64,000 nt of DNA from Candidatus Coatesbacteria bacterium. Its GTDB lineage: Bacteria; RBG-13-66-14; B26-G2; JAUVZD01. Shown here in pieces: positions 4,858 through 35,296 of the stretch; the stretch's first letter is position 1; every line of letters begins with the position of its first letter. Below the pieces are notes generated by a model, which was not told the DNA's origin, made no database searches, and was given only the letters and a program-made list of their open reading frames with translations. Location: positions 13,581 through 77,580 of the forward strand of contig JAUVZD010000007.1 in NCBI GenBank assembly GCA_030602715.1, written 5' to 3'. The position numbers and the translations under genes were made by a program.

Positions 4858-4858
4858 A

Positions 4859-6109: not shown

Positions 6110-6131
6110 ATAAGGATTGGGTTATTTCCCC

Positions 6132-6160
6132 TTGACAGTTTATGTTTTTAAATCTACAAT
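6132..6160 (+). promoter_or_regulatory. Sigma70-type promoter (TTGACA-17-TACAAT) upstream of the CBS-pspA genes
   Basis: TTGACA at 6132-6137, a 17-nt spacer and TACAAT at 6155-6160. Confidence 0.5.
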
Positions 6161-6196
6161 ATCATTTAATAGAATTTTAACTGTCCTCATCCCCCT

Positions 6197-6712: not shown

Positions 6713-6778
6713 CAGATTGCTCATCCAAACATCAACCATACATCCAGAATCCAAAACAGTTTTCGGAGGTGAATTGTA

Positions 6779-7513: not shown

Positions 7514-7602
7514 ACGAGTTTCATCAACAACACCCCCGGGGGAAGTGGACTATTACCCCGGGGGGATTTTCAAGTCGGTTTTCAGGTTTAGAATCGTCCC
7601 AT

Positions 7603-8262: not shown

Positions 8263-8350
8263 AAACTGATATAGATAGGCATAAAGCAAAAAAGTTAGTA
8301 AAAAACCCAAATAAGATATTTGCAAACCACAAAAATGGAGGTTGTGTAAT

Positions 8351-10223: not shown

Positions 10224-11363
10224 TTGCACCCCCTTCCAAGAAATATCCTGCAAATCGCCTTAATACTTATCCTTTGCGCCCTCCCAATCATCTCCCGGGG
10301 GGGCGATTCCGCCCTCCTACTATCCCAACTGAGCATATTGGACGGTCGGGTGGGCATCGGCTTAAACTACACCTTCACTGTGGACAATGCCGAGCTTTCG
10401 CCTGTGGAACACCCCTGCCCCTACGAGAAGAGCTACATCGCCCAGGAGTTACATCCCTACCTCCGCTTCACCCTCCATAAAAGTGACGAATCGCTGATAG
10501 AACTCCGCCCCGGCTTGCGCCTGGTTCACATCATCGGCGGAGGGGTCGCCGTCCACCCCCGCATTCAGGCTGAGCTGGCAAGCACAAGCCACCACCTCCT
10601 GCTGGGTCACTTCCGTCCTGACCTCCACCCCCTCTTCCTGCACCTCAAGGCGGAGAGCGACGATTGGCCCGGCGCAGACTACACCTTCAGCAGGGGCTTC
10701 TTCGGCTTTGACCTGCTTGCCGCCCGCACCCAGATACCCGCCGACCGAACCTACGAAACCATCCCTCTGGCGGTCCGTTTGACCGCTTCCTACGGTGGAC
10801 TTTTTCAAATCTCCGCCCTGGCATCAGCCCTCCATCTGGCAGGTCATGACACCGGCGGCACCGGCTATAAACCGCCTGAGCCCTCCAAGCGAGAGTTTCT
10901 CTGCTACGGTGCGGTCGCCGATTTCTCCCTACTTCGCCCCTTCATCTCCAGCGAAGGATGGCTGAACGACATACGAGTGAACGGCGCTCTGGCATTTGGT
11001 CTGGAGCGAGGGGTGGACGGAGGTCTCGCCTGGGATGTAGGCGTGGAGTTAAGGCTATTCAGTTTTATGGGCTTTGCAAGCAACTACTACTCCCTGCAAG
11101 GGGAGTTTGTCTCCCCTCTTGCCCACGACGAACTGCGGGGCGCATCATTCTACTGGTCCAAAGGCTGGAGCTACAGCCAGCCCGGCGCCTACCCCGACCA
11201 CCGCTATCTCAATTTCATCCTCTCCGGCGGCTGGGAATTCATCGGCGCCGTATCGGTGAGCGGAAGTGTGGAGCAGGGCTATCATTTTGAGAAAGACGAC
11301 GACGGAATGCGCCGTCTATACAGCTACAATCGGTTTATCTGCTCGTTGAATATCAGCCTTTAG
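10224..11363 (+). CDS. Hypothetical secreted protein
   Basis: TTG start with an AGGAG SD. N-terminal signal peptide LQIALILILCALPIISRG. No recognised domain. Confidence 0.5.
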   Translation: MHPLPRNILQIALILILCALPIISRGGDSALLLSQLSILDGRVGIGLNYTFTVDNAELSPVEHPCPYEKSYIAQELHPYLRFTLHKSDESLIELRPGLRLVHIIGGGVAVHPRIQAELASTSHHLLLGHFRPDLHPLFLHLKAESDDWPGADYTFSRGFFGFDLLAARTQIPADRTYETIPLAVRLTASYGGLFQISALASALHLAGHDTGGTGYKPPEPSKREFLCYGAVADFSLLRPFISSEGWLNDIRVNGALAFGLERGVDGGLAWDVGVELRLFSFMGFASNYYSLQGEFVSPLAHDELRGASFYWSKGWSYSQPGAYPDHRYLNFILSGGWEFIGAVSVSGSVEQGYHFEKDDDGMRRLYSYNRFICSLNISL

Positions 11364-17080: not shown

Positions 17081-17280
17081 ATTGGGAATTGAAAGCATTA
17101 AATAACAAAAAAGCCGGGCTTTGCGCCCGGCTAACCTTTATCCAGAGGATAAATATTAAACCCTCAATTAAAATTCACAAGACACTTTCCATATTGTCTT
17201 AAAACCATCAAACCCTCGGTTGACATCTTTTCCATTTCAATTTATACTTCAATTATGGACCTTCAAGGAAGAGCCAGATA

Positions 17281-18926
17281 TGTTTAAAGAATTGCTAAGC
17301 CCCACAACAACCCATTTGGTAATATTGAAGATCGGAGCCCTTGCCATACTGGGCTTCTTAACCGCCGTCTTCATCAGGCGGAGAAGGATTGTTCTCGCAG
17401 TAATCGGCATACTTGTTGTAGCGGTGCTTCATCTCTCTATCTTCGGTTTCTGGTTGATGGATGACGCTTATATAACCCACCGCTATGCAAAAAATTTCGC
17501 TTCCGGTCAGGGGCTGACCTTCAACCCGGAGGAAGCTGTTCCCATAGAGGGCTTCTCATCACCAATTTATCTTTTCACACTGGCTCTCCTCATAACACTC
17601 GGTGCATCATCTTTATATCTTACCCAGATGCTGAGTTTGCTGTTCTTCGCCGTATCTATGATGTTGCTCTTACTCTCCGTAAGAGCTTACTATGAAAAAT
17701 CAACGGAGATAGCCCTCTACTCAATCCTCTTCCTCTCGCTTGCCTCCCCTTACATCGTCTATGCCATATCCGGTATGGAGAACACCCTGGTTTCGTCCTT
17801 AATACTGCTGACAATTATCCTCTATTCAAAGGGCAAGAGAGCATTGACAGCCCTCACCTTCGGATTCCTGGCTATCGCACGCCCGGAGGGCTTCGTCATC
17901 GGTATAGCAGCCCTCACCTGCGACTTAATCGTCACCCAACGCGCCTCAAAGCGGAGGTTCAAGGAATGTGCATTCACAATACTAAAGTGGGTTCCGTTCA
18001 TAGCAATTTTTGGAGCGTATTTCCTGTTCCGCATATTATATTTTGAAGAAATCTTTCCAAACACATATTACGCCAAGATGGGAGGATATGTAGATAGAAT
18101 AGTGACCGGAATTGTATATTTCATCCGCTTCTTCATCTTCTTCGGATTACCCCTCTTCTCAGCTCTCTTTATCATCGGGCGAAAATTTATCAAGATGTAT
18201 CATCTCCCTCTAACGCTACTTGTAGCCTACACAGTATTCATCATCCTTGCCGGGGGTGACCTTCCAGCATATCGTTTCTTCACCTACACCATCCCGTTGA
18301 TCCTCCTGCTGGGGGTTGGTGGGTTGATCCACTTAAAGGGGATTTTAAGACGGGGCTTCACCGCGGTTCTGTTCATAATGATTTTTACCCTGGTATCCGG
18401 CACATATTTTCTGGCTTTGGTGGATATGGGTGGGGGGATTTCCTCATTAAAGGCGAGAGGAATTGTTATCGGAGTTGATAGGGTCCAGGGAGCGTTATAC
18501 AACCTGGCAAACGATATAAATAAGGACGCAGAGGGCGATGAGAAAATCGCATTGATAGATGCCGGCATCGTTCCCTATCTTACTGGATTGACTACCGTTG
18601 ACCTTTGGGGACTGATGGATGCCCAGATAGCGGAATGGAAGTATGCCTGTTCCAGCGGTGCTATTACCGGAGATGAGTTTGACCATAAGGTGTGCGAATA
18701 TTTCTTTGGGGGGCAGGTTGACTATTTGGCTATGGATGTCGTCGGTCAGAGTGAGGAGGAGATTGAAGAGATTCTCTCACAAGGTGAATACCATAAGTTG
18801 GAGAGCCACCACGACTTTCACCGCATAAATGAGGATGAGAAGTTCGTTGGACTCTACGAGGCGGTCGGGGTCTATACCATAAACGACGAATATCACCTGG
18901 TTCTCTTTAAGCGGCTGAGCAGTTGA
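17281..18926 (+). CDS. GT-C fold membrane glycosyltransferase (PMT_2/ArnT-like), paralog 1
   Basis: Multi-TM N-terminal half with a first-loop motif DDAYITHRYAKNFASGQGLTFNP (an ArnT/PMT-like DD/DE-x-Y...RYA motif), then a C-terminal soluble domain. The ATG at 17281 with an SD is preferred over 17220. Confidence 0.55.
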
Positions 18927-19093
18927 ATCTCACCTTGAAGGGGGTGGATTCTTTATTTTTTCCCGACTTTCACCAAATTCCCTACTTTACAGCTTGACTA
19001 TCACATTTCAATAATTTAATTACTAGTTTTCCTTTAAAACATAACCCGGAAGTTAATACCTACAAGAAATTTAAAAAATTTCCGGAGACCAAG

Positions 19094-20845
19094 ATGCGCT
19101 TCAACTCAGGCTGGGCTTGGACCGCCCTGGCGATTTTATCCGCGGTGTTCGTCATTCTTGCCACACTGCAATACTGGTCTATGGAGGAGGACGCCTTCAT
19201 CCTCTTCCGATATGCGGAGAGCGCCGCCCACGGCAACGGACTATATTTCAACGGCGACTACGGCTCACCGGAGCGAGTCGCCGGATATTCCAACATCGTC
19301 TGGATACTGATACTCGCCCTCGTCGCCAAGCTGGGTATCCCCACCCCGGCGGGAGCACGGGCGGTCCTTCTCCTGATAAGTTCGCTCAATCTAATTCTCC
19401 TGTATTATCTTACCAAGCGCATAACCGGCGAGCACCGCCCTCTCAACCTCCTCCCCCCCCTCCTTCTCGCCACCAATGTATGCTATCTATGGTATGCCCC
19501 CGGCGGAATGGAGCCGGCGCTCTTCATCTTCTTCGCCCAGAGCGCATTTCTAGCCTTCATGTATGAAGAGGAACACGGGGTGAGATTCCCCTACTCAGCC
19601 ATACTTTTCGCTCTCCTCACCATGACTCATCCCGAGGGACCGCTCTACTTTCTGGCTGCGGTCGCCTGGCGGGGCGCCAGGCGGTGGCGCAATAAGGAGA
19701 TATTCCTGCGTGACGGGGTCTGGTTCTTCATCTTCTGGACTATCTACTTCGGCTTTCTCATCTGGCATCTGGGCTACTATCGGGACCCCTTCCCCACCAC
19801 CTTTTACAACAAGGGCGTGGGGCATCCCCAGAAACTGCTTCCCGGGTTAAAACACCTGCTCTCCTTCTTCCTGGACAGCAGGGGATACATTCTATTTCTA
19901 CCAATTCTCGCCCTGCCTCTGCGCCGAAAATGGGACCGCCTGGCCTCACCCGGCCCCCCCCAAGGCGGGGTGGCGGGGTGGCTGGTCGCCCTTTTCGTGC
20001 TGGCTGGAGTCGGTTTCATCCTCGTCTGCGGGGGCGACAGCAAAACCCACTATCGTTTTATAATCCCCTTCATGCCCTTTCTCTTCGTCCTGGTTGCGGC
20101 GGGCTTGGCTCGTCTGGGAAAATGGATGCGAAACAAGCGAGCGCTGGCAGTCGCAGTAATTGCATCGCTTGCGGTCATCCTGGCGGTTACAAACACCGTT
20201 CTCTTTGACGATTTCGTCCCCCGGGGCAACATGCTTACCGCAAACATCGCCGAGCTGGTGAAGAACCCCCGCTACCTGATTGACAAGTGGCGATACAGCT
20301 TCGCCCCCTACTCCCACCACCCCAGCACCAATGTAGGTCGCTGGATGAAGGAAAACCTCCCCCCGGACAGTTACATAGCCACCGGACAGACCGGCAATAT
20401 CCCCTATTACGCAGAGATGACCTGCCTGGACATCATGGGATTTAACGACCAAATCATCCAGAAGATACGCATGGAGCGCAACTGGGGGTATAACACATAC
20501 ATCCTGGCACGCAAACCCGACTACCTGGGCGACTACGATGTCATGATGAGGCAGTATGGCGACCGATTAGCCCCCACCCGGCTGGTGGAGGACCCCGACT
20601 TTATCGCCAACTACGAGCTGTATGCGGTCATTGACACCGACCGGGCGGTTCGTGGGGAGAGCATCGGTATACAACGTTTCGTTCTTTTCAAAAGGCGGGA
20701 GCAACCGGTAGAATTAGAGGGCTGGGAATATGAAGAGGCGCTGGAGAGATTTATCTCCAAAGGGGAAAATGTGCTTAGCTACCCCTGTGATTATATCCTC
20801 CCTCCTGGATACAAAGAGAGCGAGAACGATGGTAAAGAGGAGTAA
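19094..20845 (+). CDS. GT-C fold membrane glycosyltransferase (PMT_2/ArnT-like), paralog 2
   Basis: Loop motif EEDAFILFRYAESAAHGNGLYFNGDYGSPE is homologous to paralog 1. About 11 TM helices plus a C-terminal soluble domain. Confidence 0.55.
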   Translation: MRFNSGWAWTALAILSAVFVILATLQYWSMEEDAFILFRYAESAAHGNGLYFNGDYGSPERVAGYSNIVWILILALVAKLGIPTPAGARAVLLLISSLNLILLYYLTKRITGEHRPLNLLPPLLLATNVCYLWYAPGGMEPALFIFFAQSAFLAFMYEEEHGVRFPYSAILFALLTMTHPEGPLYFLAAVAWRGARRWRNKEIFLRDGVWFFIFWTIYFGFLIWHLGYYRDPFPTTFYNKGVGHPQKLLPGLKHLLSFFLDSRGYILFLPILALPLRRKWDRLASPGPPQGGVAGWLVALFVLAGVGFILVCGGDSKTHYRFIIPFMPFLFVLVAAGLARLGKWMRNKRALAVAVIASLAVILAVTNTVLFDDFVPRGNMLTANIAELVKNPRYLIDKWRYSFAPYSHHPSTNVGRWMKENLPPDSYIATGQTGNIPYYAEMTCLDIMGFNDQIIQKIRMERNWGYNTYILARKPDYLGDYDVMMRQYGDRLAPTRLVEDPDFIANYELYAVIDTDRAVRGESIGIQRFVLFKRREQPVELEGWEYEEALERFISKGENVLSYPCDYILPPGYKESENDGKEE

Positions 20846-20978
20846 CGGGAGACGATGGACATGGTTGACCTGCGAAGGGAAACACGCACAATCGCAGTAA
20901 TGATTATCTTGACAAATCGTTTCCTTATGTTAGTATAAATGGTAAGATTTCAACCATTAACCGTAGGGAGGTTCAGAG

Positions 20979-21836
20979 ATGAAGTGGATTACCATTGTTT
21001 TTGTCCTGATGTTCTTGCCCTTCTGGGCATTTGGCTTGTTGGACGATACTGGAGCCGATTTAAGCGCTCCGTTTGGGAGCCAGATACCCACACCCAATCC
21101 CGATGTGGATATTGAGATAGATATCCTCAACACCTTCACATGTTCTTACGCATCGCATATCTTGGGATTGGATTATGTTGAGGACGAAAGCCTCTTGGGG
21201 TTTGACAGCAACTTGAACAAAACATTCTTCTATTGCGACCCTGACGACGGGACCTATGTGGACGAACTGTATCTGGCTTATTCCTCATCCCCCTTCTGTG
21301 CCGTTGCTGACGACAATGGATATGTGTATGTGGACGACTGGGGAGAATCCTACATAAACTGGTGGGACGGATCCTGGCATTCCTTCTCCAATCCCTCTGG
21401 GACCGATGGCAGAGGGATGGACTATGACTTTGACAGCGGTTACCTCTGGGAGACCAAATCCAGCACTGGCGTGTATCGCTTCCTCACCGATGGCACCGGC
21501 TCTGAGTTCTTCAGCCTTTCCGAGGTTCCCACCTCGATGAGCGGGCTCACCGTCTTCCCCCACGGCGACAATATGTGGTTGATGGTCACCACCTATGGCA
21601 CGTTTAACTTCTACTTCTACGAGTTTGACGGCTCTACGCTCACCTATCTGACCTACGAACCCTGTCCCACCGGCTGTTCCTCCTCCTTAGGACTGACCTA
21701 TTCCGCCGAGAGGGACACCTTCTTCTGGAGTTACAATAGCGGTGGCTACAAAATCAGCGAACTGGATATCACCTTTACTTTCACCGCCGTTCAGCCGGTA
21801 TCTCTCGGCTACATCAAGGCTCTAATGAGCGAGTAA
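20979..21836 (+). CDS. Secreted D/G/Y/W-rich beta-propeller-like protein with the conserved C-terminal tail ...VQPVSLGYIKALMSE (family member 1)
   Basis: Signal peptide MKWITIVFVLMFLPFWAFG. The last 16 codons are nearly nucleotide-identical to those of the next gene. Confidence 0.7.
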   Translation: MKWITIVFVLMFLPFWAFGLLDDTGADLSAPFGSQIPTPNPDVDIEIDILNTFTCSYASHILGLDYVEDESLLGFDSNLNKTFFYCDPDDGTYVDELYLAYSSSPFCAVADDNGYVYVDDWGESYINWWDGSWHSFSNPSGTDGRGMDYDFDSGYLWETKSSTGVYRFLTDGTGSEFFSLSEVPTSMSGLTVFPHGDNMWLMVTTYGTFNFYFYEFDGSTLTYLTYEPCPTGCSSSLGLTYSAERDTFFWSYNSGGYKISELDITFTFTAVQPVSLGYIKALMSE

Positions 21837-21857
21837 ATCTTAGAGGCAAGGAAAGCC

Positions 21858-21897
21858 AAAGTGGATGGGTCAATTCTTCCCATCCACTTTTATTTTT
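21858..21897 (+). terminator. Rho-independent terminator (copy 1 of the repeated cassette)
   Basis: AAAGTGGATGGG-tcaattctt-CCCATCCACTTT followed by TATTTTT. Confidence 0.75.
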
Positions 21898-21960
21898 AAA
21901 CGGCTTGGATCAGCATCGTTGCCTGAGAGGGGGAACCATCCCAATCGGGTAATTTTTTTC

Positions 21961-21989
21961 TTGACATCTTTACTATTTTTATCTATAAT
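21961..21989 (+). promoter_or_regulatory. Consensus sigma70 promoter TTGACA-17-TATAAT (cassette copy 1, drives family member 2)
   Basis: An exact -35/-10 consensus with a 17-nt spacer. A strong SD AGGAGG lies before the ATG at 22093. Confidence 0.7.
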
Positions 21990-22092
21990 TTCAATGTAGT
22001 TACCCAGATAGTTAGTGGTTTTATTTTATTATTTTGTTTGTGGCTTCATAGTGAGGGGCTGAAACAAAAACCTAAAAAAAGGAGGATTTGGG

Positions 22093-22890
22093 ATGAGAAT
22101 TTTACTTATTTCAGTTATCTTGGTAGCAGTGGCTGCTGTTGCCTATGGAGACCCGGGCGATATTCTTGACCAATGGCAAGTCTCTGGCCAGTCTTACAAT
22201 TATGTCCGCGGGTTGGCTTATGATTGGAACGATGAGGATGTCTGGTGTATTGATAACGATGCCGGCTATGCTATTGACTATTGCAAGTTCGACGGCGCAT
22301 CACCACACGATGTAGTCGTCCCCTGGGATGATGTTTCCTCAACTTGTTACTGGGGCTTTGACATCGCCTACGATGGAACCTACATCTACATGAATGACCA
22401 GAATATTCTTGTTTATGTAATTGACCCCACCGATGGAAGTGTGGTGGATTCCTTTAGTGCCCCTTGTGGTGGCGGAGATTATCCCGAGGGCATCGCCTAC
22501 AACCAGGATACTGACTACCTTTACCACACCGGTTTTTACAGTAAGACCATGTGGGTAACCAACACCAGTGGGACTGTTGTTGATACCTGGACCAATATTC
22601 TCCCATCCGCTTCTGGTAATATGGGCGTAGCCTATGGATATGGAAGGATCTGGGTTACCAATAACACCACTAATGAGATCTACCGAATAGACCCAGACAC
22701 CGGCACTCTTGAAGTAACATTCGGTCACAGTATACCTGACTATGAGTTAGGTCTCTGCTGGTCACCTAACGACACATTATTTGCTGCTAATTTCTTGACT
22801 GGATACATCTACGAAATTGAGCCGGACCTAACCTTCACCAGTGTACAGCCAGTATCTCTCGGTTACATCAAGGCTCTAATGAGCGAGTAA
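22093..22890 (+). CDS. Secreted beta-propeller-like (NHL/YVTN-like repeats) protein with the conserved tail ...VQPVSLGYIKALMSE (family member 2)
   Basis: Signal peptide MRILLISVILVAVAAVAYG. Repeats resemble GIAYNQDTDYLY and RIWVTNNTTNEIYRIDPDTG. The C-terminus is identical to member 1. Confidence 0.7.
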   Translation: MRILLISVILVAVAAVAYGDPGDILDQWQVSGQSYNYVRGLAYDWNDEDVWCIDNDAGYAIDYCKFDGASPHDVVVPWDDVSSTCYWGFDIAYDGTYIYMNDQNILVYVIDPTDGSVVDSFSAPCGGGDYPEGIAYNQDTDYLYHTGFYSKTMWVTNTSGTVVDTWTNILPSASGNMGVAYGYGRIWVTNNTTNEIYRIDPDTGTLEVTFGHSIPDYELGLCWSPNDTLFAANFLTGYIYEIEPDLTFTSVQPVSLGYIKALMSE

Positions 22891-22911
22891 ATCTTAGAGG
22901 CTAGGAAAACC

Positions 22912-22952
22912 AAAGTGGATGGGTAATTTCTTCCCATCCACTTTTTATTTTT
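22912..22952 (+). terminator. Rho-independent terminator (cassette copy 2)
   Basis: The same hairpin as copy 1, followed by a T-run. Confidence 0.75.
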
Positions 22953-23015
22953 AAACGGCTTGGATTTGTATCGTCTACTGAGAGGGGGAACCATCCCAAT
23001 CGGGTAATTTTTTTA

Positions 23016-23044
23016 TTTGACATCTTGACTATTTTAATTTATAA
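23016..23044 (+). promoter_or_regulatory. Consensus sigma70 promoter TTGACA-17-TATAAT (cassette copy 2, drives family member 3)
   Basis: TTGACA at 23016-23021, a 17-nt spacer and TATAAT at 23039-23044. Confidence 0.65.
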
Positions 23045-23147
23045 TCTTATATGGACTTTTGAGAAAGAATTCCTGCTTTGAAAAATGTGATACAATTGAT
23101 ATACAGAGACGGTCCAAAACAGGTTTGACAGAAGGATTTGGTCAGTT

Positions 23148-23863
23148 ATGAATAAGATTACAGTTTTGCTGTCGATTTTGTTGTTGGTGACGCCTCCTCT
23201 ATTAGCGACCGCCGACATCCTCTGGCAGGATGACTTTGACGGCTACTATCCTGGCATGCCCCTGGAGGATTCGCCGGATTGGGATGAATTCTGTCCTCCC
23301 GATTATTGGACCTTTGTTGTTGTCACCCAATCGGGAGATGACCTATGGGTCGGCGCAAATTGGTCACTTTGCATTGCCACCGGAGGCGCTGACAACCCCA
23401 ATATGAAAGTCTCCGCCGGGAGGTGGACATAGGTGTCGCTCATTATGGCCTTCTAGGAGTTCTTACTCGTTATTCAATCTCTGAAGAAAATGGTTATGCT
23501 GCTGTATGTAAGGTTACCGATACTTACTATGACCCTTACCCTCCTAGCTTTTATGGGGAGATACACTACATTGATAGTTGCTTTTCGTATGAGCGACTGG
23601 TTTCTATTGAACTGCCCGGGGCAATAAGTTCCATCAGTATCGTTGCCCACGGAGAAAACCCCGTCTATCTTGAGGCTTGGTTTGACGGTCACTGCCTTAC
23701 AACCAATGATTACATTTATAATCTTACGGAGGGCTACGGCGGAATATTCGCCGAGGGGTGTATGTGTCTAGAAGGCTACTTAGACGACTTCCTGGAGGAG
23801 GAGGTCTACGAAAATATAAAGCCCGCATCTCTCGGTTACATCAAGGCTATAATGAGCGAGTAA
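23148..23863 (+). pseudogene. Family member 3 (tail ...KPASLGYIKAIMSE), split by a frameshift near 23393-23432 into two ORFs (23148..23432 and 23423..23863)
   Basis: The first ORF has a signal peptide and a mature N-terminus ADILWQDDF like member 2. The second ORF, in frame +2, carries the conserved tail. The second frame is open from 23393. A fused product would be about 240 aa, like the paralogs. Confidence 0.5.
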
Positions 23864-23884
23864 AGCTTAGCGGCTGGGAAAACC

Positions 23885-23924
23885 AAAGTGGATGGGTCAA
23901 TTCTTCCCATCCACTTTTATTTTT
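23885..23924 (+). terminator. Rho-independent terminator (cassette copy 3); may act bidirectionally with the convergent gene ending at 24031
   Basis: The same AAAGTGGATGGG...CCCATCCACTTT hairpin plus a T-run. Confidence 0.7.
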
Positions 23925-24030
23925 AAACGGCTTGGATTTACATCGTCGCCTGCGAGGAAAAATACGCCCACTCCGCATAATCCTTTCTTCACATCTTTAC
24001 TACCACTAACTTTCCAGATTGCTCATCACC

Positions 24031-25563
24031 TCACTTCACCGACACATACAACCTGGCCAGTTCCGTCCCGCCGATGAGCTTTAGGTTGCCCCCCTCCACC
24101 AGTTCCTGCTCGCCAATCTGATATTCTTCCCGCCACTTCTCCGGGAACCAGACCAGCACCGCCCTACTTTCAGCCATATATTCGCCGAAATCAACCGCTC
24201 TATCGGTAACCTGCGGCGATATTTTTGCTATGCGTAAGCTGTATAAATAGATGGGATATGGGTAGTTGCTCACCAGGGGAGCATCTTCAGGCAATATCCG
24301 GGAAAGCTCGGCGATTCCCTCCCGCCACATCGGATTGGCATAGCCCAAAGAACCGTCCCCATACATTTTGAGGAGATAACCGCCAGTGGAAAAAGTTGCA
24401 GCCGAAAGCCAGACCAGAAAAAGGAGGAGCGCAAATCTCTTTATTCCCACCCCACTTCTCTGAGCGAATAAGAGCTTACGAAGGACGAAGACCACCAGTA
24501 AAAGCAAGGGCACAAAGATGGGGGCAAGCAGACGGCTGTCCAAAAAATCAAATTTGACGATGGTGGCAAGAAAGACCAGTCCCGAAAGATATAGCAGAAT
24601 ATACACAACCAGGACTATCACCATCAACCTACCCCGACCATCCAACTCTCCTCGCATCCTTCGCAGGATTATGATTACACCGACCGCAACCAAGGCCAGA
24701 AAGGCAAACCCCACCGACAGATGCAGCCACCGAGCCAACCCGGGGTTGGTAAGCCAGACGCCCACCACCTCTCCGATGCGTGAGAGGTTGGTGAGAAGCC
24801 CATAAGGCGAGCGACCTCTCTGCCCCACAGGACTGCCGGAGGCTATAAAACTATACATCAGCCACAAAAATAGTGGCATGCCGGCTATCAGCGAATACCA
24901 AATCGCCTTACTCCATCGCTTGCCGTCTCTTAAAGTGAAGCGGGGATAGAAAAAGATTGCCGTAACAACGGTGAAGATTGTCACCACACCTATATACCGG
25001 AGCATACACCCCAGAGCGGTCAGCAGTGCCGAGGCGACCAACGCCCTCCTCCGCTTCCTCTCCAATCCCTCTACCAACAACCATAATGCGACCATCACCA
25101 CTAAGATAAAGGAGACCTCGGTCCAAATACAGGATGCGCACATCACCAGCGGGGGAGCCAAAGCCACCCCTGCCCCTACGCATAGTCCCATCCCGGGCGA
25201 GTCGGTCATGCGGAAGGCATAGTAAGCGAAGAGAACGACCGAGCAAGCCAGTAGCAGAGCGTTGAAGAATGCGCTGGCGGTTATAGGTGATAAACAGATA
25301 GATTTAAACAGGGCTAAAAGCAGGGGGAAGGCGGGGGGCCAGAGGCTGATGTGGCTTGGCGGACCGACTTCATCCCATAGTTGGAAGGGGGAGGTGAAAC
25401 CTCGCCCGCCATCTAGGTTGTCGGCGATGGCGATGTAGAAGAGCGAATCCATGGAGACGCCGGGACCGTGGTTTGACTGAGCCACAAGCACCGCTCCCCC
25501 GCTTAGCAGTGCCAAGCCGAGCAAGGGAATTAAAAAATTGCTCATGGTGGAAATAGGTCTCAC
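24031..25563 (-). CDS. GT-C fold membrane glycosyltransferase (PMT_2/ArnT-like), paralog 3
   Basis: Loop motif SMDSLFYIAIADNLDGGRGFTSP is homologous to paralogs 1 and 2. Many TM helices. The start may be the internal M at 25545. Confidence 0.55.
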   Translation of the reverse strand: MRPISTMSNFLIPLLGLALLSGGAVLVAQSNHGPGVSMDSLFYIAIADNLDGGRGFTSPFQLWDEVGPPSHISLWPPAFPLLLALFKSICLSPITASAFFNALLLACSVVLFAYYAFRMTDSPGMGLCVGAGVALAPPLVMCASCIWTEVSFILVVMVALWLLVEGLERKRRRALVASALLTALGCMLRYIGVVTIFTVVTAIFFYPRFTLRDGKRWSKAIWYSLIAGMPLFLWLMYSFIASGSPVGQRGRSPYGLLTNLSRIGEVVGVWLTNPGLARWLHLSVGFAFLALVAVGVIIILRRMRGELDGRGRLMVIVLVVYILLYLSGLVFLATIVKFDFLDSRLLAPIFVPLLLLVVFVLRKLLFAQRSGVGIKRFALLLFLVWLSAATFSTGGYLLKMYGDGSLGYANPMWREGIAELSRILPEDAPLVSNYPYPIYLYSLRIAKISPQVTDRAVDFGEYMAESRAVLVWFPEKWREEYQIGEQELVEGGNLKLIGGTELARLYVSVK

Positions 25564-25621
25564 CAGGACTCCTCAGGATGATGAAACTCTCTGATAAATT
25601 GTATAAATCCAGCCTAACAGA

Positions 25622-25646
25622 AACCCCTCCCTGAGGGCGGAGGGGT
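25622..25646 (-). terminator. Rho-independent terminator downstream of glmS
   Basis: On the minus strand: CCCCTCC-gccctca-GGGAGGGG, then TTT. Confidence 0.5.
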
Positions 25647-25666
25647 AAGTATCCACTCCAACCTTC

Positions 25667-27502
25667 CTACTCCACGGTCACACTCTTTGCCAGGTTCCTC
25701 GGCTGGTCCACATCACAGCCCCTACCCAGGGCGGCGTAATAAGCCAGGAGTTGTAGCGGCACGGTAGCCATGATGGGCATTACCATGCGGTGAGAGCGGG
25801 GGAGGTAAATGGTGCTGGTGCAGTGCTCCTCAATCCCCTGGGTGCCCTCGCAGACCAGACCGAACACTCGGGCCTGGCGAGCCCGCACCTCCTGCACATT
25901 GGACAGGGTCTTCTCTATCACCGATTCCTGGGTCATAATAGCCACCACCGGCGTTCCATCCTCCACCAGGGCGATGGTGCCATGCTTCAGCTCTCCGGCG
26001 GCATATGCCTCCGCATGAATATAGCTTATCTCCTTGAGCTTGAGCGCTCCCTCCCTGGCGATGGGCTCGTCAAGGTTGCGCCCCAGAAAGTAGCAGTGCT
26101 CATCGTCCAATATCTGGTCCGCCAATCCCTTGAACTCCTCCTGACGTGCCAGAAGGGAGTCAATGTCCGAGGGCAGGCGATTCAACCCCTTGATCAACTG
26201 TTTGCGATCTATCTTGGAGGAGACGCCCCTGATATCGGAGAGATAAAGACCCAGGAGGAGCAAGACGGTCAGCTGGGCGATGAAGGCTTTGGTGGAAGCT
26301 ACCGCAATCTCCGGACCGGCATAGGTATAGAGCACCGAATCGGAGTGGCGGGCGATGGAAGAGCCCTGGACGTTGGTTATAGCCAGGCTGGTAGCTCCCA
26401 ACTCCCGGGCGGTATCCAAGCTGGCTAGAGTGTCCGCCGTCTCCCCCGATTGACTGACCAAAACCACCAGGTCGCGGGGATGGACCACCGGTTTCCGGTA
26501 TCTGAATTCACTGGCGATATCCGCTGCCACCGGCAGTCCCAGCATCTCCTCCAGAATATATTTGCCGTAAATGCAGGCGTGGTAAGCGGTTCCACAAGCC
26601 ACCAGATGGATGCGCTTCGCCCTCCGCAAATGTTCATCAGTCACCGCCAAATCCAGCTTGACATCCCCTTTGGGGCTCAACCGTCCCTTGGTGGTGTTAT
26701 GCACCACCCGGGGTTGTTCAGTTATCTCCTTGAGCATGTAGTATTGGTAGCCCTTTTTGGAGGTTTCTTCTACAGTCCAATCCACAATTGATATGTGCCG
26801 GTTGGAAGCGCTGATAGGGGGACCGTCAACAAAGGTGTCCACCTCAATAATGTCTTCAGCTACTTTGACGATATCGCCGTTGTTTAGAATATAAAATTTA
26901 TTTGTTTTGCTCAACAGAGCGGGGATGTCGCTGGCGATGTAGTTTTCCCCATAACCCAATCCAATGATAAGGGGTGCGTTCATGCGGGCAGCCACCAGAT
27001 AACGCTCATCTTTGTGCATAAAGACCAGGGCGAAGGAACCCTGCACCTCAACCAAGGCTTTCTTAACCGCTTCCTTCAGGTCTCCCTGGTAATGCTTTTC
27101 CACCAGATGAGCCAACACCTCGGTATCGGTCTGGGAGACGAACTGGTGCCCCTCAGCGATGAGCTTCTCCTTTAGGGGGAGATAGTTCTCAATGATACCG
27201 TTCTGGATTACGACGATATTACCACTACAGTCCATGTGGGGATGGGCATTGATGTAGGTGGGAACCCCATGGGTAGCCCAGCGGGTATGTCCGACGCCCA
27301 TGGTGCCGGTGGGCATATTATTAGCCAGGAGCTTCTCCAATTCCTCCAACTTTCCCGGGGCTTTCTCTATCACCAGCTCCCCGGAGGAATTGACCACCGC
27401 AATGCCGGCGGAATCATAGCCCCGATAGGCGAGGTTTTCCAGCGTCTCCACCAGAAATGGACCTGCTTCCATGGAGCCTACATAACTGACAATCCCACAC
27501 AT
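25667..27502 (-). CDS. glmS: Glutamine--fructose-6-phosphate aminotransferase (GlmS)
   Basis: MCGIVSYVG N-terminus (the catalytic Cys follows Met). SIS domains. 610 aa. The track ORF is extended by 6 codons. Confidence 0.9.
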   Translation of the reverse strand: MCGIVSYVGSMEAGPFLVETLENLAYRGYDSAGIAVVNSSGELVIEKAPGKLEELEKLLANNMPTGTMGVGHTRWATHGVPTYINAHPHMDCSGNIVVIQNGIIENYLPLKEKLIAEGHQFVSQTDTEVLAHLVEKHYQGDLKEAVKKALVEVQGSFALVFMHKDERYLVAARMNAPLIIGLGYGENYIASDIPALLSKTNKFYILNNGDIVKVAEDIIEVDTFVDGPPISASNRHISIVDWTVEETSKKGYQYYMLKEITEQPRVVHNTTKGRLSPKGDVKLDLAVTDEHLRRAKRIHLVACGTAYHACIYGKYILEEMLGLPVAADIASEFRYRKPVVHPRDLVVLVSQSGETADTLASLDTARELGATSLAITNVQGSSIARHSDSVLYTYAGPEIAVASTKAFIAQLTVLLLLGLYLSDIRGVSSKIDRKQLIKGLNRLPSDIDSLLARQEEFKGLADQILDDEHCYFLGRNLDEPIAREGALKLKEISYIHAEAYAAGELKHGTIALVEDGTPVVAIMTQESVIEKTLSNVQEVRARQARVFGLVCEGTQGIEEHCTSTIYLPRSHRMVMPIMATVPLQLLAYYAALGRGCDVDQPRNLAKSVTVE

Positions 27503-27575
27503 TACCACCCTCCAGAGCAATTGAAACCACGATGGATTTCGCTACACATTATGATAACAAAATATGCTGTGAAAA

Positions 27576-28937
27576 TCAATCCCCCATGTACCCAAGCATC
27601 CCCTTGAGCACCACCGCAAGACGCTTCATCTGCCTTCCCCGTTCATACCAGCGAAAAACGGACGGGTCAGCAAAAAACTTCTCTTTTCGCCGGTCGTAAA
27701 AGGAGATAATCGCTTGGGCAATGCCTTCGGTATCCTCGTGGGGAAGAACCCGTCCCGCTCTCAATCTCTCCACCAGCTCCCCTGTCGGCGAGGGGGGAGA
27801 GATGACCAGGATAGGTTTTCCCGCCCGCAGATACTCCGTCGTTTTCAGGGATAGGACTACCTCCCCGGCTCTGCCACGGGGGACGATTAGAAGTAAAAGG
27901 TCGGCGCCCAACATCTCCGAGATAGCCTGAGAATGTCCCACGTGTGGCAGACGCTCAGCCACCCCCTGCCCTTCAAACTCCCCAAAAAGTTCCTCCTCAG
28001 TGATGTCAACAATTCCAACCTGGCGAAAAATTACCCGCCCGCTCAAATCCCCCCTCAACTCCAAAGCACGACGAAGACCTGCCAGAAAATAACCGCCTCC
28101 CCTGCCGGGGTAGAGTGTGCCGGTGTGAACTATCCGAAAACGCCCTTCGGGGTCCTTAGGCGCCGAATCGGCGCAGGCAAAATCCTCTTCATCATATCCG
28201 TTGGGCAAATAGAGCAACTTGCCGGAAAGATGACGCCCATGGTCCTTTAGAAAATCCCGCACCAGAGGGGTGGTTACGGTAATTACCAATGCTGCTTTTC
28301 TTATCAGATACGCTTCAAGCATTGGAGTGAGCAGCAACTCCAGGGGGTGATATTTTACCCGGAAGGGATAGTGGCGCCACAAGTCTCTGAAATCAACGAT
28401 AAGTGGTTTTGCGGTGCGCATGGATAGCATCAGGGCTACAAGTAGATTGGAAGGTGGAGGATGGGTAGCATATATCGCCCGCACCCCATGTTTGCGTATC
28501 GCCTGTAGACCGGCTCTGTAGGCGGAAGGAATCCAGCCCACCACATCATCGGGATAGAGGGCAAATCGCTTGATAATCCTTAGTACACAGATAACCGCCC
28601 GCTTGATGGACGATAACCGCTTTGTTGAATCCCCCCTTCCCCCCTCCATCTTACCCCTTCCAAACCTCTGCCGGGTTGGTATCTTGGGTGAGGGTATGCG
28701 GACAAGGATGCGGGAGAAATCATCCGGCTCCTCACCGGTTAAATCCACAAACCGATAGTCCTTTGAGGTGAGCACCACCGGCAGAAAACCAAGCCTGGAG
28801 AGATACTTCGCCACCTTAACCGTGCGCAGGACGCGCACCCCACCCACTGGAGGATAGAAGTGGGTGACCATCAAGATGGGTATCCTGTGTTTCCCGCTAT
28901 CTTGCATTGAAAGACCCTTTCGCTCTGGAAAGGGCAA
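27576..28937 (-). CDS. Glycosyltransferase family 4 (GT-B fold)
   Basis: N-terminal ILMVTHFYPPVGGV; C-terminal GT1/GT4-like (GKPILVISPP). The start is possibly the M at 28907. Confidence 0.65.
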   Translation of the reverse strand: MPFPERKGLSMQDSGKHRIPILMVTHFYPPVGGVRVLRTVKVAKYLSRLGFLPVVLTSKDYRFVDLTGEEPDDFSRILVRIPSPKIPTRQRFGRGKMEGGRGDSTKRLSSIKRAVICVLRIIKRFALYPDDVVGWIPSAYRAGLQAIRKHGVRAIYATHPPPSNLLVALMLSMRTAKPLIVDFRDLWRHYPFRVKYHPLELLLTPMLEAYLIRKAALVITVTTPLVRDFLKDHGRHLSGKLLYLPNGYDEEDFACADSAPKDPEGRFRIVHTGTLYPGRGGGYFLAGLRRALELRGDLSGRVIFRQVGIVDITEEELFGEFEGQGVAERLPHVGHSQAISEMLGADLLLLIVPRGRAGEVVLSLKTTEYLRAGKPILVISPPSPTGELVERLRAGRVLPHEDTEGIAQAIISFYDRRKEKFFADPSVFRWYERGRQMKRLAVVLKGMLGYMGD

Positions 28938-29751: not shown

Positions 29752-30537
29752 CTACTCCGATATCACCACATTGACCTTGTCGCCCTTCCTGGTCTGTGAA
29801 CCCATAGGTGGATTCTGGCGCACCACCTTGCCCGGGGGAACATCCGGATGGGGCTCCTTAATTACCTCACCCAAAAGCAGACCGAACTCCGCCAAGTGCT
29901 TCTGAGCGGAGCTAACATCCAAGCCGACCACTGAGGGCACCAAGATAGTCGCTTTCTCCGAGCCCAGACTGACCAACAGGTCTATCTTTCCACCTCTGGC
30001 GATGGTCTGGTGCGGTTCCGGCGTCTGGGATATGATGCCTCCTTCCGGCACCGCCTCGTCGTGCACCTCGCTTATGTCGCCGATGGAGAGACCCAGCTTG
30101 GAAAGAACAATCTCAGCCTGGCGCACCGAACGACCGCTCAGGTCGGGGATATGCACCAGACCGGTGCCGGAGCTTATCTTCAATTTGATTTTCCGTCCCT
30201 CACGCACCGTCATACCCGCAGCCGGCGACTGCTCAACCACATAGCCCACCGGCAGGTTGGAGTCCACCTCCCCGGCGCTCTCCGCCAGCAGATTGTGGCT
30301 CATCAGTATCTGCTCCGCCTCCTCATAGGTAAGACCGACCACCTCCGGCACCTCCACATCCTGACCACGGCGCATATAGCAGGAGCCGATGCCGAAAACC
30401 ACCAGCAGGTAACTGCCCACCATCACCAAGACGCAGATGACCAGCCATTTTACCGGCCCATACCATTTCTTCTCTGCAAGAGAGCCTCCCTTGCGCTCTA
30501 TCTTCCGCTTACTACCGGAAAGGTCTATCTCCGCCAT
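29752..30537 (-). CDS. Membrane-anchored PASTA-domain protein (three PASTA repeats)
   Basis: An N-terminal TM helix, then repeated PASTA units (VPEVVGLTYEEAEQIL..., IPDLSGRSVRQAEIVL..., VPSVVGLDVSSAQKHL...). Confidence 0.7.
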   Translation of the reverse strand: MAEIDLSGSKRKIERKGGSLAEKKWYGPVKWLVICVLVMVGSYLLVVFGIGSCYMRRGQDVEVPEVVGLTYEEAEQILMSHNLLAESAGEVDSNLPVGYVVEQSPAAGMTVREGRKIKLKISSGTGLVHIPDLSGRSVRQAEIVLSKLGLSIGDISEVHDEAVPEGGIISQTPEPHQTIARGGKIDLLVSLGSEKATILVPSVVGLDVSSAQKHLAEFGLLLGEVIKEPHPDVPPGKVVRQNPPMGSQTRKGDKVNVVISE

Positions 30538-32578: not shown

Positions 32579-35296
32579 ATGATGAAAAGTTATCTGGCGA
32601 CAATTATTCTAGTTTTGTTCGCCGCCTCCTCTGCCTGGTCGGTAACCTTTGACCAAGCCACGGATATAGTCATCTCCGAGGTCTGTCTGGGCAACCTGGA
32701 GGATACCCGCCTTTCTACAATTGAAGGGATTCAGGAGCAAGGCACTATCATAAGTTCTTTCTCAGACGAAGTTATGGTGCCCTTCAACTCCTATCTCTTC
32801 ATCGTGGACCGGATGCCTGACGCCAACTGGGAGCACCCCTGCCAGTGGGTCTTTGTGGATGTAGCAAGCGGGGAGTTTGCGGTATTTGATATGTTGTCCC
32901 CACCCGGAATACTGTTGATGACAATCATCCACGAACCGCTGGATTTATCAAGTATCGGCGAATATTCCTACGAGAAGATCATTGAGCGCATCCGTGAGGA
33001 GCAGATCAAGATATTCGGGGCGGAAAGCTATGACTTTGACCACAGTCAGCTCAAAGGACAGCGCTACGCCCTGCTCATTGACGGCGGATACGCCCTTTCC
33101 AGCAACTACATCCGCTACTGGGACGATATCGCCTTCATCTACCGAGCCCTGGTCAACTACTACGGCTACGACGAGGACAACGAGATAACCGTCTGCATGT
33201 CCGACGGGGACAACCCCGCTAATGACCGCAACCGCTGGCCCTATTCCGGCTACGACAGCTCACCTACCGACCTGGACGACGACGGAGACCAGGACTATTC
33301 CCTGGACGCCACCCGCTCAACCATCCTCAGCCAACTACAATGGTTGGTTGACAACACCACCGCAGACGACCAGGTCTTCATCTTCACCACCGACCACGGG
33401 GCAAGCGACGGTAGTCTCTGCCTGTGGAATCAACAGTCCCTCTACCCCAATGAATTTGCCGACTATGTTGAAGATATGCCCGCCGAGGTGGTTATCTGCA
33501 CCTTTGAACAATGTTATTCCGGAGCCTTCCCCGACGCCCTGGCTGACGTTGAGGGCTGTATCAGTTGTTCGGCGGTGGATGCTTACCACTCCTCATACGC
33601 CATGGGTCCCGAATATCTCTTTGATACCTTCGTCTTCCATTGGACCTGTGCGGTGAACTGGGCGGAACCCGATTTTGAGGGCTACGACAGCGACCCCATT
33701 GACGCCGACGAAGACGACTCCGGCGAGGTGGAGATGGACGAAGCTTTTGACTATGCCGACTTACACGACACCGACGACTTTGGCTCTCAGTATCAGGACC
33801 CCTCCGAAATAGGCGATGTGACCACCCTCTGGGGTAACACCACCGGCATAAATATCTCCATCACCGACTGGCAGCTCACCGAGACCTCCGGCGACGGCGA
33901 CGGAATTATTGAACCCGGGGAGAGCTACGACCTCACTCCCTATCTGTATAACGGTGGGTCGGCGACCGCCACCGGGGTTGACCTGATTCTGAGCAGTGAC
34001 AGCTCCGATTTAGACATAGATACCGCCACCACTACCTGCCCGGATATCCCCCCGGATACCACCCAGCATCCATCCGTCCCCCTGGCTTTCACCATCCACG
34101 GGGATGTGGACCACAACATACACATTGACTTCAACCTCAATGTCAACACCGACGAGGGCTATGACAAAGACTTCGCCTATCAGATAGGCGTAGTAACCGA
34201 CTACGGTTTCCGTGACTTCGTGGAGAGCGGTGAGGGCTACTGGGAACATGAGGGCGACCACGACCAGTGGCATATCTCCGACACCGCATACTACAGCCCC
34301 ACTCATTGCTGGCGGTGCGGGGATACCGAAGGAACAGGCTACGACAACAATATGGACGCCCACCTCTACAGTCCGTTAATCTTCGTAACCGACGACCCAA
34401 AAGAGACCCCCTACCTCTCCTTCTGGCACCAGTGGGGTATGTATTCAAGTTCCGACGAGTGCTATCTGTTGATTGATGACGGCAGTGGCTTTGTGGAGCT
34501 GGACAACTTCACCGGCGACAGCGGCTCCAACTGGGAAGAGGAGACCTACGACTTGACCGCATACACCGACACTCTGGTTCAGCTGGATTTCAACATGGTA
34601 ACCAACGCTTCGGGGAACGACGAACTGGGCTGGAATGTGGACAACATCATCGTGACCCCCAATCCGTATGTCGGTATAAACGTCTATAACTTCATCACCC
34701 TCTGCGAGGACGGGAAAGTCATCGTCACCTGGCAGTCTCTTGAGGACGTGGGGATAATCGGCTTCAACCTCTATCGCCGAGAGGCAAGCGATACCCTCAA
34801 CCAGAAAACCAATCTCACCGCTTCTCCTGAGGGAATGAACAGCCCGGCAAGTATAATCAACGACTGGCAGAAGCTGAACCAGTCCTTGATTACCGGCACA
34901 AATCCCTATCACTTCGTAGATGAGGATGTAATCCTGGACGTTACCTACCAATACCGTCTGGAAGCGGTCTATGGCGACCACAGCCAGAATGAAGCCGGCT
35001 CCACCATCACCGTTCAGGACCAGACCCAGCCCTTCAGTTATCATCTGGCGCAGAGTTATCCCAACCCCACCACTGGACACCTGACCATAGAATACGCCAT
35101 TCCGGAGAGCGGTGCGGTCTCCCTCAAGGTCTATAACCTGAGCGGTCAGTTGATAGACATTCTGGTTGATGAGCACCAACTGCCCGGCATCTACTCGGTA
35201 AAATGGAACGCCCGGGACCTGGCAAGCGGAGTTTATATCTACACCCTCTCCGCCGGCAATTTCCTCAGCTCCAAGAGACTGGTCTTAAGCAAGTAG
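32579..35296 (+). CDS. Secreted legumain-like (peptidase C13 / clan CD) protease with a type IX secretion C-terminal sorting domain
   Basis: Signal peptide. A His motif VFIFTTDHGASDGSL and a Cys motif VVICTFEQCYSGAF resemble legumain DHG / EACESG. The last ~85 aa match the T9SS type-A CTD (SYPNPTTGHLTIEYAIPESGAVSLKVYNLSGQLIDIL...SGVYIYTL). Confidence 0.7.
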   Translation: MMKSYLATIILVLFAASSAWSVTFDQATDIVISEVCLGNLEDTRLSTIEGIQEQGTIISSFSDEVMVPFNSYLFIVDRMPDANWEHPCQWVFVDVASGEFAVFDMLSPPGILLMTIIHEPLDLSSIGEYSYEKIIERIREEQIKIFGAESYDFDHSQLKGQRYALLIDGGYALSSNYIRYWDDIAFIYRALVNYYGYDEDNEITVCMSDGDNPANDRNRWPYSGYDSSPTDLDDDGDQDYSLDATRSTILSQLQWLVDNTTADDQVFIFTTDHGASDGSLCLWNQQSLYPNEFADYVEDMPAEVVICTFEQCYSGAFPDALADVEGCISCSAVDAYHSSYAMGPEYLFDTFVFHWTCAVNWAEPDFEGYDSDPIDADEDDSGEVEMDEAFDYADLHDTDDFGSQYQDPSEIGDVTTLWGNTTGINISITDWQLTETSGDGDGIIEPGESYDLTPYLYNGGSATATGVDLILSSDSSDLDIDTATTTCPDIPPDTTQHPSVPLAFTIHGDVDHNIHIDFNLNVNTDEGYDKDFAYQIGVVTDYGFRDFVESGEGYWEHEGDHDQWHISDTAYYSPTHCWRCGDTEGTGYDNNMDAHLYSPLIFVTDDPKETPYLSFWHQWGMYSSSDECYLLIDDGSGFVELDNFTGDSGSNWEEETYDLTAYTDTLVQLDFNMVTNASGNDELGWNVDNIIVTPNPYVGINVYNFITLCEDGKVIVTWQSLEDVGIIGFNLYRREASDTLNQKTNLTASPEGMNSPASIINDWQKLNQSLITGTNPYHFVDEDVILDVTYQYRLEAVYGDHSQNEAGSTITVQDQTQPFSYHLAQSYPNPTTGHLTIEYAIPESGAVSLKVYNLSGQLIDILVDEHQLPGIYSVKWNARDLASGVYIYTLSAGNFLSSKRLVLSK

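Follow-up and report, generated by a model that had tools for sequence, protein, structure and literature searches.

A Conserved C-Terminal Tail on Unrelated Secreted Proteins of Candidatus Coatesbacteria and Other Uncultured Bacteria: A Candidate Localization Tag on a Recombining Cassette

Introduction

Three consecutive genes in a stretch of Candidatus Coatesbacteria DNA raise the question of why exported proteins with different cores should end in almost the same peptide. The stretch analyzed here, referred to below as the window, comprises 64,000 nucleotides of contig JAUVZD010000007.1, and the genes are found at 20979–23863 on its + strand. The codons of their common C-terminal tail open a repeated piece of DNA, the cassette, which continues with a terminator-like hairpin and, behind the first two genes, with a promoter. 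Is the tail a signal in the exported protein, a membrane anchor, a handle for known outer-membrane machinery, or the coding edge of a repeated DNA element? We conclude that it is probably a new, modular C-terminal localization tag that lacks a transmembrane (TM) helix, is read by a partner and, in this lineage, is borne on a cassette.

Three Genes with a Common Tail

Genes 1 (20979–21836), 2 (22093–22890) and 3 (23148–23863) are tandem open reading frames (ORFs) on the + strand, and all three products have signal-peptide-like N-termini. The 285-residue product of gene 1, with a core of a 5-bladed propeller family, and the 265-residue product of gene 2 both end in VQPVSLGYIKALMSE, and that of gene 3 ends in KPASLGYIKAIMSE, so that the original prediction of three consecutive signal-peptide genes with near-invariant tails was borne out. 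In gene 1, the tail is encoded at 21789–21836 (+), which comprises 15 codons plus the stop. A six-frame scan of the window revealed no further copy of a tail of the VQPVSLGYIKALMSE/KPASLGYIKAIMSE type.

The cores had been described as divergent and β-propeller-like, which holds for genes 1 and 2 but not for gene 3. The products of genes 1 and 2 are 32% identical over their full length (BLASTP, E = 1e-13), and the two genes are old paralogues, both encoding β-propellers. In the AlphaFold2 (AF2) model of the gene 2 product (mean pLDDT 88), residues 24–242 form a 5-bladed propeller of the glutaminyl-cyclase type, residues 243–255 a flexible linker and residues 255–265 the tail, which is detached from the propeller (pLDDT ≈55). 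Residues 256–263 are drawn as a short helix behind the disordered linker, also with a pLDDT of ≈55. Foldseek matched this model to 3nol (TM-score 0.66/0.73), and the sequence has a weak match to DUF6923.

The core of gene 3 is unrelated. The gene contains a −1 frameshift at a GGG run (23418–23420), with a stop at 23430–23432, and is thereby split into ORFs at 23148–23432 and 23423–23863; the NCBI annotation lists two separate products, of 94 and 146 residues. The frameshift could reflect a real pseudogene or a homopolymer assembly error. The frameshift-corrected product (238 residues) had no detectable sequence match to genes 1 and 2 or among the collected tail proteins, and its AF2 model, made with no alignment, had a pLDDT of 38 and no usable fold. 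The mature N-termini had been thought to be related through a DIL(D/W)Q motif, but this likeness is a match of 3–4 residues, which in the propeller family form the first β-strand, and for gene 3 it is too short to show kinship. With an unrelated core in gene 3 and old paralogy between genes 1 and 2, the locus therefore consists of two diverged propellers and one unrelated, possibly broken gene, with the tail common to all.

The Tail Motif in Other Proteins

A profile of genes 1 and 2 was searched against 1.84 billion representative proteins (E ≤ 1e-3), which yielded 249 relatives, mostly of ≈280 residues. Among the best 150 of these 249, 91 end in a recognizable form of the tail (e.g., TWGSIKTSF, SLGRVKALFR or SLGYVKAMYK), which can be written as Φ-x-x-x-[ST]-[WLIVF]-G-x-[IV]-K-x-x-[FY]-([KR]). 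The conservation was described for 75 proteins superimposed on the glycine (position 0), in which positions −2 to +3 are fixed by the selecting pattern and the others are free: T at −8, L/I/V at −6, T/S at −2, W/L at −1, I/V at +2, K at +3, A/T/S at +4 and F/Y at +6, followed optionally by K/R or a few residues. The number of residues after the motif lysine varies from 2 to 8. The tail is thus not restricted to three recent duplicates, the outcome that had been set beforehand as speaking against a tag, since the motif is found on many other proteins.

The search for further C-termini of the LGYIKALMSE type gave a divided result. While the related motif is widespread in the propeller family, the exact pattern GYIKAxMSE-stop had no match in GTDB genomes or JGI metagenomes; in the close strains the terminal residues are MSD or MSG, and the window genome lies outside both collections. 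A word-index protein search with gene 2 matched gene 2 alone, being too insensitive for this family; a profile search with the 40-residue tail returned only fragments of 29–69 residues, and a search with an 83-sequence family alignment gave few matches.

The GTDB genomes were also scanned at the DNA level with a degenerate pattern encoding P-x-[ST]-x-G-x-[IVM]-K-A-L-[FY]-[KR]-stop (≈39 bits), for which ≈2 chance matches were estimated. The pattern occurred in at least 119 stretches, which among the matches listed all came from 11 metagenome-assembled genomes (MAGs): three Zixiibacteriota, the complete Coatesbacteria bin961 chromosome and seven unclassified genomes. Many stretches contained 2–5 matches ≈1 kb apart on one strand. 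At least 230 tail-ending ORFs were extracted from the matched loci, with 2–41 per genome within the fetched DNA. Their cores include NHL six-bladed propellers, DNRLRE/CBM96 and NTTRR-F1 domains, the 5-bladed propeller family and several unannotated families. The motif lies within 3 residues of the C-terminus in 186 of 192 matches, and a signal-peptide-like hydrophobic region is present in 174 of the 203 tail ORFs of at least 150 residues. As had been claimed for the window proteins, the tail has no TM helix: in the last 40 residues of these 203 proteins, the highest 19-residue Kyte–Doolittle mean was 1.39 (median 0.37), and no TM segment was found.

No Pfam or NCBIfam model covers the tail, either in genes 1–3 (at E ≤ 1) or in ten canonical tail proteins, which agrees with the claim that it matches none of the type IX secretion system (T9SS) C-terminal domain (CTD), PEP-CTERM, LPXTG and GlyGly-CTERM signals. 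The searchable literature contained nothing relevant on the motif or on sorting signals in Zixibacteria and Coatesbacteria. The tail motif is thus undescribed in Pfam, NCBIfam and the searchable literature.

A Candidate C-Terminal Localization Tag

We read the tail as a localization signal mainly because homologous cores alternate between the tail and the T9SS CTD, a “choice of anchor”. The core homologues P0057, P0120, P0142 and P0146 carry the type A CTD (TIGR04183) in the position where the window proteins have the tail, with scores of 24.7–31 bits against a cutoff of 23. In addition, the NHL and DNRLRE cores found with the tail are typical cargo of other C-terminal sorting systems. The idea of a new C-terminal sorting or recognition tag, put forward in the original prediction, is thus supported by the presence of the motif on unrelated signal-peptide proteins, with the sorting itself being our interpretation.

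The tag would consist of a flexible linker followed by ≈13–15 residues of the form Φ-x-(P)-x-[ST]-[WLIVF]-G-x-[IV]-K-[AST]-x-[FY]-([KR]), without a TM segment; the tag peptide was written out as AVAPASLGRVKALFR. Sec would export the proteins via their N-terminal signal peptides, and a shared partner, which might be a receptor in the envelope, a translocon or an enzyme that processes the protein, would then read the tag in an extended, strand-like form and keep the protein at, or direct it to, the envelope or the cell surface. In this way, the tag would fill the role played on homologous cores elsewhere by the T9SS CTD or the PEP-CTERM signal. What we infer here is that the tag sorts, that it is extended and that a partner exists.

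An extended, partner-bound recognition peptide is favored over a self-inserting amphipathic helix because the conservation has a period of 2 (V−14, P−12, S−10, G−8, V−6, A−4 and F−2) and the strand hydrophobic moment exceeds the helical moment in 101 of 120 tail cores, while shuffling the sequences gives helical moments just as high. The observed helical moment was 0.23–0.40, compared to shuffle means of 0.30–0.45, and 36–75% of shuffles reached the observed value.

Several points weigh against this interpretation. The AF2 model draws the tail as a short helix, albeit with the low pLDDT given above, which conflicts with a strand-like conformation. The tag in the window is itself a divergent variant, with Met in place of Phe/Tyr and an acidic Ser-Glu end; lacking the aromatic plus basic end, it may be a decaying or retargeted form. 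In the 11-MAG set, the search pattern itself partly dictated that P, S, G, K, A, L, F and R are invariant, and the independent support for the motif is the core-homology set; likewise, the taxonomic range rests on the matches listed from one GTDB scan. A co-occurring processing or export gene was sought, but no candidate sorting enzyme recurs among the neighbors in ≈900 kb around tail genes. What recurred there was T9SS cargo together with GT-C glycosyltransferases and small TPR proteins, none of them distinguishable in frequency from background. Finally, the localization, processing and partner of the tag are proposals.

The small TPR proteins, of ≈180–220 residues and ending in ...WF.ELVAFK, occur within a few kb of tail genes (L005, L051, L056, L066 and L115), with 13 copies in the ≈900 kb, in 5 MAGs.

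A more far-reaching version, which we put forward tentatively and with less confidence than the tag itself, is that the motif is the address label of an undescribed sorting or attachment pathway in diderm candidate phyla of the FCB group. It would be the first proteome-wide C-terminal signal to work without a TM helix and without a folded CTD. The near-invariant Ser/Thr-x-Gly and Lys might then serve as a processing or covalent-attachment site, for example to a cell-envelope polymer, an outcome analogous to PorU/A-LPS attachment or to the attachment of Lpp to peptidoglycan through its lysine. C-terminal sorting signals have repeatedly led to new envelope machinery, as with sortases, exosortases, rhombosortases and the T9SS. 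Here, uncultured bacteria resembling Zixibacteria and Coatesbacteria bear the tag on dozens of secreted proteins per genome, of the propeller and carbohydrate-binding types. Should it truly be a signal for sorting, it would define the surface or envelope proteome of these lineages, offer a handle on the machinery through phylogenetic profiling and account for many “hypothetical” MAG proteins.

Comparison with Known Signals and Anchors

The tail resembles the T9SS type A CTD (TIGR04183/PF18962 Por_Secre_tail) in being a C-terminal signal on Sec-exported proteins of the FCB group, with many cargo proteins per genome, as well as in its position on the propeller homologues. The CTD, however, is a folded Ig-like domain of 70–100 residues, whereas the tail is a peptide of 13–15 residues behind a disordered linker. 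Neither genes 1–3 nor the ten canonical tail proteins, with a tail of 15 residues, gave a match to the CTD models. Among the annotated ORFs of the window, we saw no T9SS core genes (PorV, PorU, Sov or GldKLMN) and one T9SS cargo. This cargo (32579–35296; 905 residues) has a signal peptide, a legumain-like Peptidase_C13 domain and a genuine CTD of the Por_Secre_tail type, so that T9SS-type sorting is probably in use in this genome next to the short tail.

Like the signals of the PEP-CTERM/exosortase, LPXTG/sortase and GlyGly-CTERM/rhombosortase systems, the tail is a short C-terminal motif on many unrelated secreted proteins. It shares cargo types with these systems (DNRLRE domains and NHL propellers, the NHL tail protein having the PEP-CTERM protein ScyF as its best NCBIfam match), and its P-x-S-x-G loosely recalls LPxTG. 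In those systems, however, the motif is followed by a TM helix and a basic cluster, whereas in the tail there are only 6–12 residues after the glycine and no TM-like stretch. Together with the lack of any NCBIfam or Pfam match, the missing TM helix sets the tail apart from all three families. Exosortase, sortase and rhombosortase were absent from the recurrent neighbors in the ≈900 kb around tail genes.

The best-surviving alternative, which we nevertheless regard as unlikely, is that the tail anchors the protein by itself, forming a short amphipathic helix at the membrane interface after Sec export, with no dedicated partner. The helix drawn by AF2 at residues 256–263 of the gene 2 product and the combination of hydrophobic residues with Lys/Arg, with no TM segment, are what such an anchor would look like. 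Anchors of this kind include that at the C-terminus of E. coli PBP5 (...GKIIDYIKLMFHHWFG) and the membrane-targeting sequence of MinD (GFLKRLF); along with those of PBP6 and FtsA they are short, TM-less, hydrophobic and basic, and the tail presumably resembles the PBP5 and MinD sequences (YIKLMF, compared to YIKALM). The amphipathic helix was downgraded because the hydrophobic-moment test gave no better result than shuffles: the helical moment, 0.31–0.40 in this comparison, equals that of composition-matched shuffles (0.30–0.45), and the strand moment is mostly higher. Furthermore, near-invariant Ser/Thr, Gly and Lys residues and a period of 2 over ≈15 residues exceed the specificity that is usual for anchors, which are far less conserved; the modeled helix has a low pLDDT; and the T9SS CTD on homologues implies an extracellular destination, which a periplasmic anchor does not offer.

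Slightly less likely still is the view that the tail is a β-strand handle for existing outer-membrane machinery, either a minimal T9SS signal or a β-signal of the BAM/POTRA type, with no separate system. T9SS cargo is encoded in the same genomes and T9SS CTDs occur on homologous cores. In addition, like the β-signal of outer-membrane proteins, which is read by BamA/BamD, the tail is C-terminal or nearly so, with an aromatic at −1 or −2 and alternating conservation, and lacks a TM segment. However, it has no match to TIGR04183, PF18962 or PF13860, and 15 residues are too few for the Ig-like fold of a CTD. The cargo consists of soluble propellers and β-sandwiches, and not of β-barrels. The published β-signal follows the pattern polar-x-G-x-x-hydrophobic-x-hydrophobic, which differs from the Gly-to-hydrophobic spacing of the tail (+2, +4 and +6). 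The distance from the motif to the carboxylate also varies, and many tails have 1–5 extra residues past the aromatic; the window tails end in ...ALMSE (Met-Ser-Glu) and canonical tails in [FY][KR], with a terminal F only in tails of the TWG type.

The Repeated Cassette

At the DNA level, the tail codons belong to a direct repeat on the + strand. Copy 1 (21777–21989; repeat family D1) comprises the tail codons, the stop, a terminator, a spacer, a UP-like T-run and a promoter. Copy 2, found as a blastn repeat, spans 22831–23045, while copy 3 (23820–24002) has kept the tail, terminator and spacer. Copies 1 and 2 are 89.3% identical over 215 nt (21777–21989 and 22831–23045), and copies 1 and 3 are 83.6% identical over 183 nt (21793–21975 and 23820–24002). 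The cassette had been described as nucleotide-identical, which is thus not correct. Beyond the cassette, blastn showed no other nucleotide similarity among the three transcription units.

The common terminator was found as predicted, with a hairpin and a T-run behind each stop. The hairpin has the sequence AAAGTGGATGGG-9 nt-CCCATCCACTTT, with a 12-bp stem, and occurs exactly 3 times in the 64 kb, compared to 0 expected. The three terminator-like elements, all on the + strand, lie at 21858–21901 (12-bp stem and 9-nt loop; centroid −19 kcal/mol, z −3.7), 22912–22956 (from folding and hairpin scan) and 23885–23928 (−26.2 kcal/mol), with folding energies overall of −19 to −26 kcal/mol and z of about −3.2 to −3.9. 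In each case, the stem-loop is followed by TTTTATTTTT and starts 21–24 nt past the stop, consistent with a predicted intrinsic terminator. An integron attC site was considered for the hairpin and rejected, as the stem is perfect and followed by a T-run, without attC-like features. A search of the cassette against Rfam gave only a weak match to snoR86 (E = 0.56), which is attributed to chance, and a search of metagenomes with the hairpin pattern matched only the L121 contig.

The claim of perfect TTGACA-17-TATAAT promoters after genes 1 and 2, with a degenerate copy behind gene 3, was also confirmed. The predicted σ70 promoters of gene 2 (21961–21989, +) and gene 3 (23017–23045, +) both match the consensus at 12/12 positions and have a T-run upstream; this consensus is that of E. 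coli and may not be the host's. Past gene 3, the −35 box has become TTCACA, there is no −10 box, and the similarity then stops. Gene 1 is preceded by a promoter-like site at 20909–20936 (+), TTGACA-16-TAGTAT with a TG extension, which is predicted by sequence match (10/12 in a consensus scan).

Recombination Between Cassette Copies

The arrangement of the locus was compared with two JGI contigs, L121 and L122, which contain orthologues of gene 1 at ≥90% identity. Positions 1–3804 of L121 correspond to 18174–21975 of the window, and positions 3621–7592 to 23820–27790, both at ≈94% identity. The two blocks overlap in L121 by 184 nt, which is the cassette; the window therefore holds an extra 2,027 bp (21976–24002, +), comprising genes 2 and 3 and bounded by direct cassette repeats, that is missing in both L121 and L122. 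On both contigs, gene 1 is followed directly by a PMT_2 gene on the minus strand. In L121, copy 3 stands directly 3′ of gene 1, and the crossover to the sequence found after gene 3 occurs just past the terminator (alignment A7). In L122, the spacer is still of the copy 1/2 type and the −35 box still reads TTGACA, and the crossover lies inside the promoter spacer (same alignment). The last tail residue also differs, being E in the window, D in L121 and G in L122.

The crossover points in L121 and L122 are independent, and both lie inside the cassette. With junctions at two different points, the cassette is therefore a recombination substrate, as had been suggested, and gene number differs between strains that are ≈94% identical, with three genes in the window and gene 1 alone in L121 and L122. 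A variable locus of putative surface proteins, as had been proposed, is plausible.

Similar cases were found elsewhere. In L038 (CBFCYS010000059.1), two adjacent tail genes (5246–6226 and 6238–7014, in reverse-strand coordinates) have cores that are 23% identical, but tail codons and 76 nt downstream that are 100% identical. In L123, a locus unrelated to that of the window, there is a 51-residue relic of a gene-1-like 3′ end at 1189–1344, as well as an out-of-frame, non-coding “QPASLGNIKAIFH-stop plus terminator” at 2146–2262, ≈60 nt past a 202-residue gene, with ≈90% identity between the two relics. Local homogenization of tail-plus-terminator modules thus recurs in these lineages.

In the mechanism that we propose, the tag codons became fused with a strong terminator and the strong promoter of the next gene to give a cassette of ≈215 bp in this lineage. 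Gene conversion would hold the copies at 84–89% identity next to cores that share 32% identity or are unrelated, and homologous recombination between copies would lead to gain or loss of whole genes. The cassette resembles tandem surface-protein gene arrays, in which genes lie between homogenized direct repeats and crossovers at these repeats alter the number of genes from strain to strain. It differs from them in being a 3′ module on non-homologous genes rather than a whole-gene duplication or a 5′ expression-site cassette, and no phase-variation mechanism is evident. The window thus offers a clean natural case of a 3′ tag–terminator–promoter cassette acting as a portable joint by which genes are swapped at an expression locus.

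Could the cassette be all there is, a terminator/promoter element (MITE-like) that merely supplies the last codons of each gene, with a functionless peptide? The identity among its copies, next to cores that are saturated, its part in recombination and the non-coding tail-plus-terminator relic in L123 would fit such a DNA- or RNA-level element. The codons, however, argue otherwise. The tail-coding segments of genes 1 and 2 differ at 3 of 45 nt, all synonymous, and the substitutions within the window tails are synonymous or conservative throughout. In the tail ORFs, the tail is encoded by 201 different nucleotide sequences, with TCN codons for Ser(−10) in 186 and AGY codons in 13; Pro and Gly use all four of their codons, and Leu(−3) all six. 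L123 has kept the motif with different codons and different terminators, and across genomes the peptide is retained with different codons and unrelated terminators. These differences rule out a purely DNA-level explanation, and selection on the tail acts at the level of the protein. The peptide is also conserved in a family drawn from 1.84 billion proteins, and the motif is tied to proteins with signal peptides. A functionless peptide is therefore very improbable, the codon test having largely refuted it.

Least probable of all is a recent tandem duplication of one gene, in which the tail would close the propeller as its “velcro” strand. The paralogy of genes 1 and 2, with the tail as the most conserved region between them, speaks for it, but this explanation is refuted by the contrast between cores that are 32% and a cassette that is 89% identical, by the unrelated core of gene 3, by the AF2 model, which places the tail outside the propeller, and by the tails on non-propeller folds.

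Surroundings of the Locus

The window is otherwise ordinary chromosome, with genes for GroEL, Lon, Ddl, GlmS, RsmB, Rpe and a SurA-like protein, and one tRNA-Val. The tail genes are flanked by large polytopic membrane proteins that are GT-C/PMT_2-like, encoded at 17220–18926 and 19094–20845 on the + strand and at 24031–25563 on the − strand. One of them scores 24.5 bits for PMT_2/GT-C, compared to a Pfam cutoff of 26.1, and the other two have no Pfam match. GlmS and a GT4 glycosyltransferase adjoin these membrane proteins, and the arrangement is kept in L121 and L122. These genes may be connected with glycosylation of the tail proteins. GT-C genes were also seen near tail genes in three other MAGs (L018, L077, L096 and L115). 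The GT-C neighborhood was rejected as a functional link, since five copies in ≈900 kb are not clearly above background.

Several other genes in the window are unusual in their own right. A gene at 2278–3468 encodes a protein that combines ATP-cone domains with an AAA_18/zeta-toxin-like kinase region, and the next ORF (3478–4857, 459 residues) has no Pfam match. A GmrSD-type (type IV) restriction endonuclease gene at 8342–10198 is followed by a 379-residue ORF (10224–11363), also with no Pfam match. At 29752–30537, a 261-residue protein consists essentially of three PASTA domains, without a kinase or PBP domain, in a genome that looks diderm, with SurA-like, Omp28-like and DUF5916 genes nearby.

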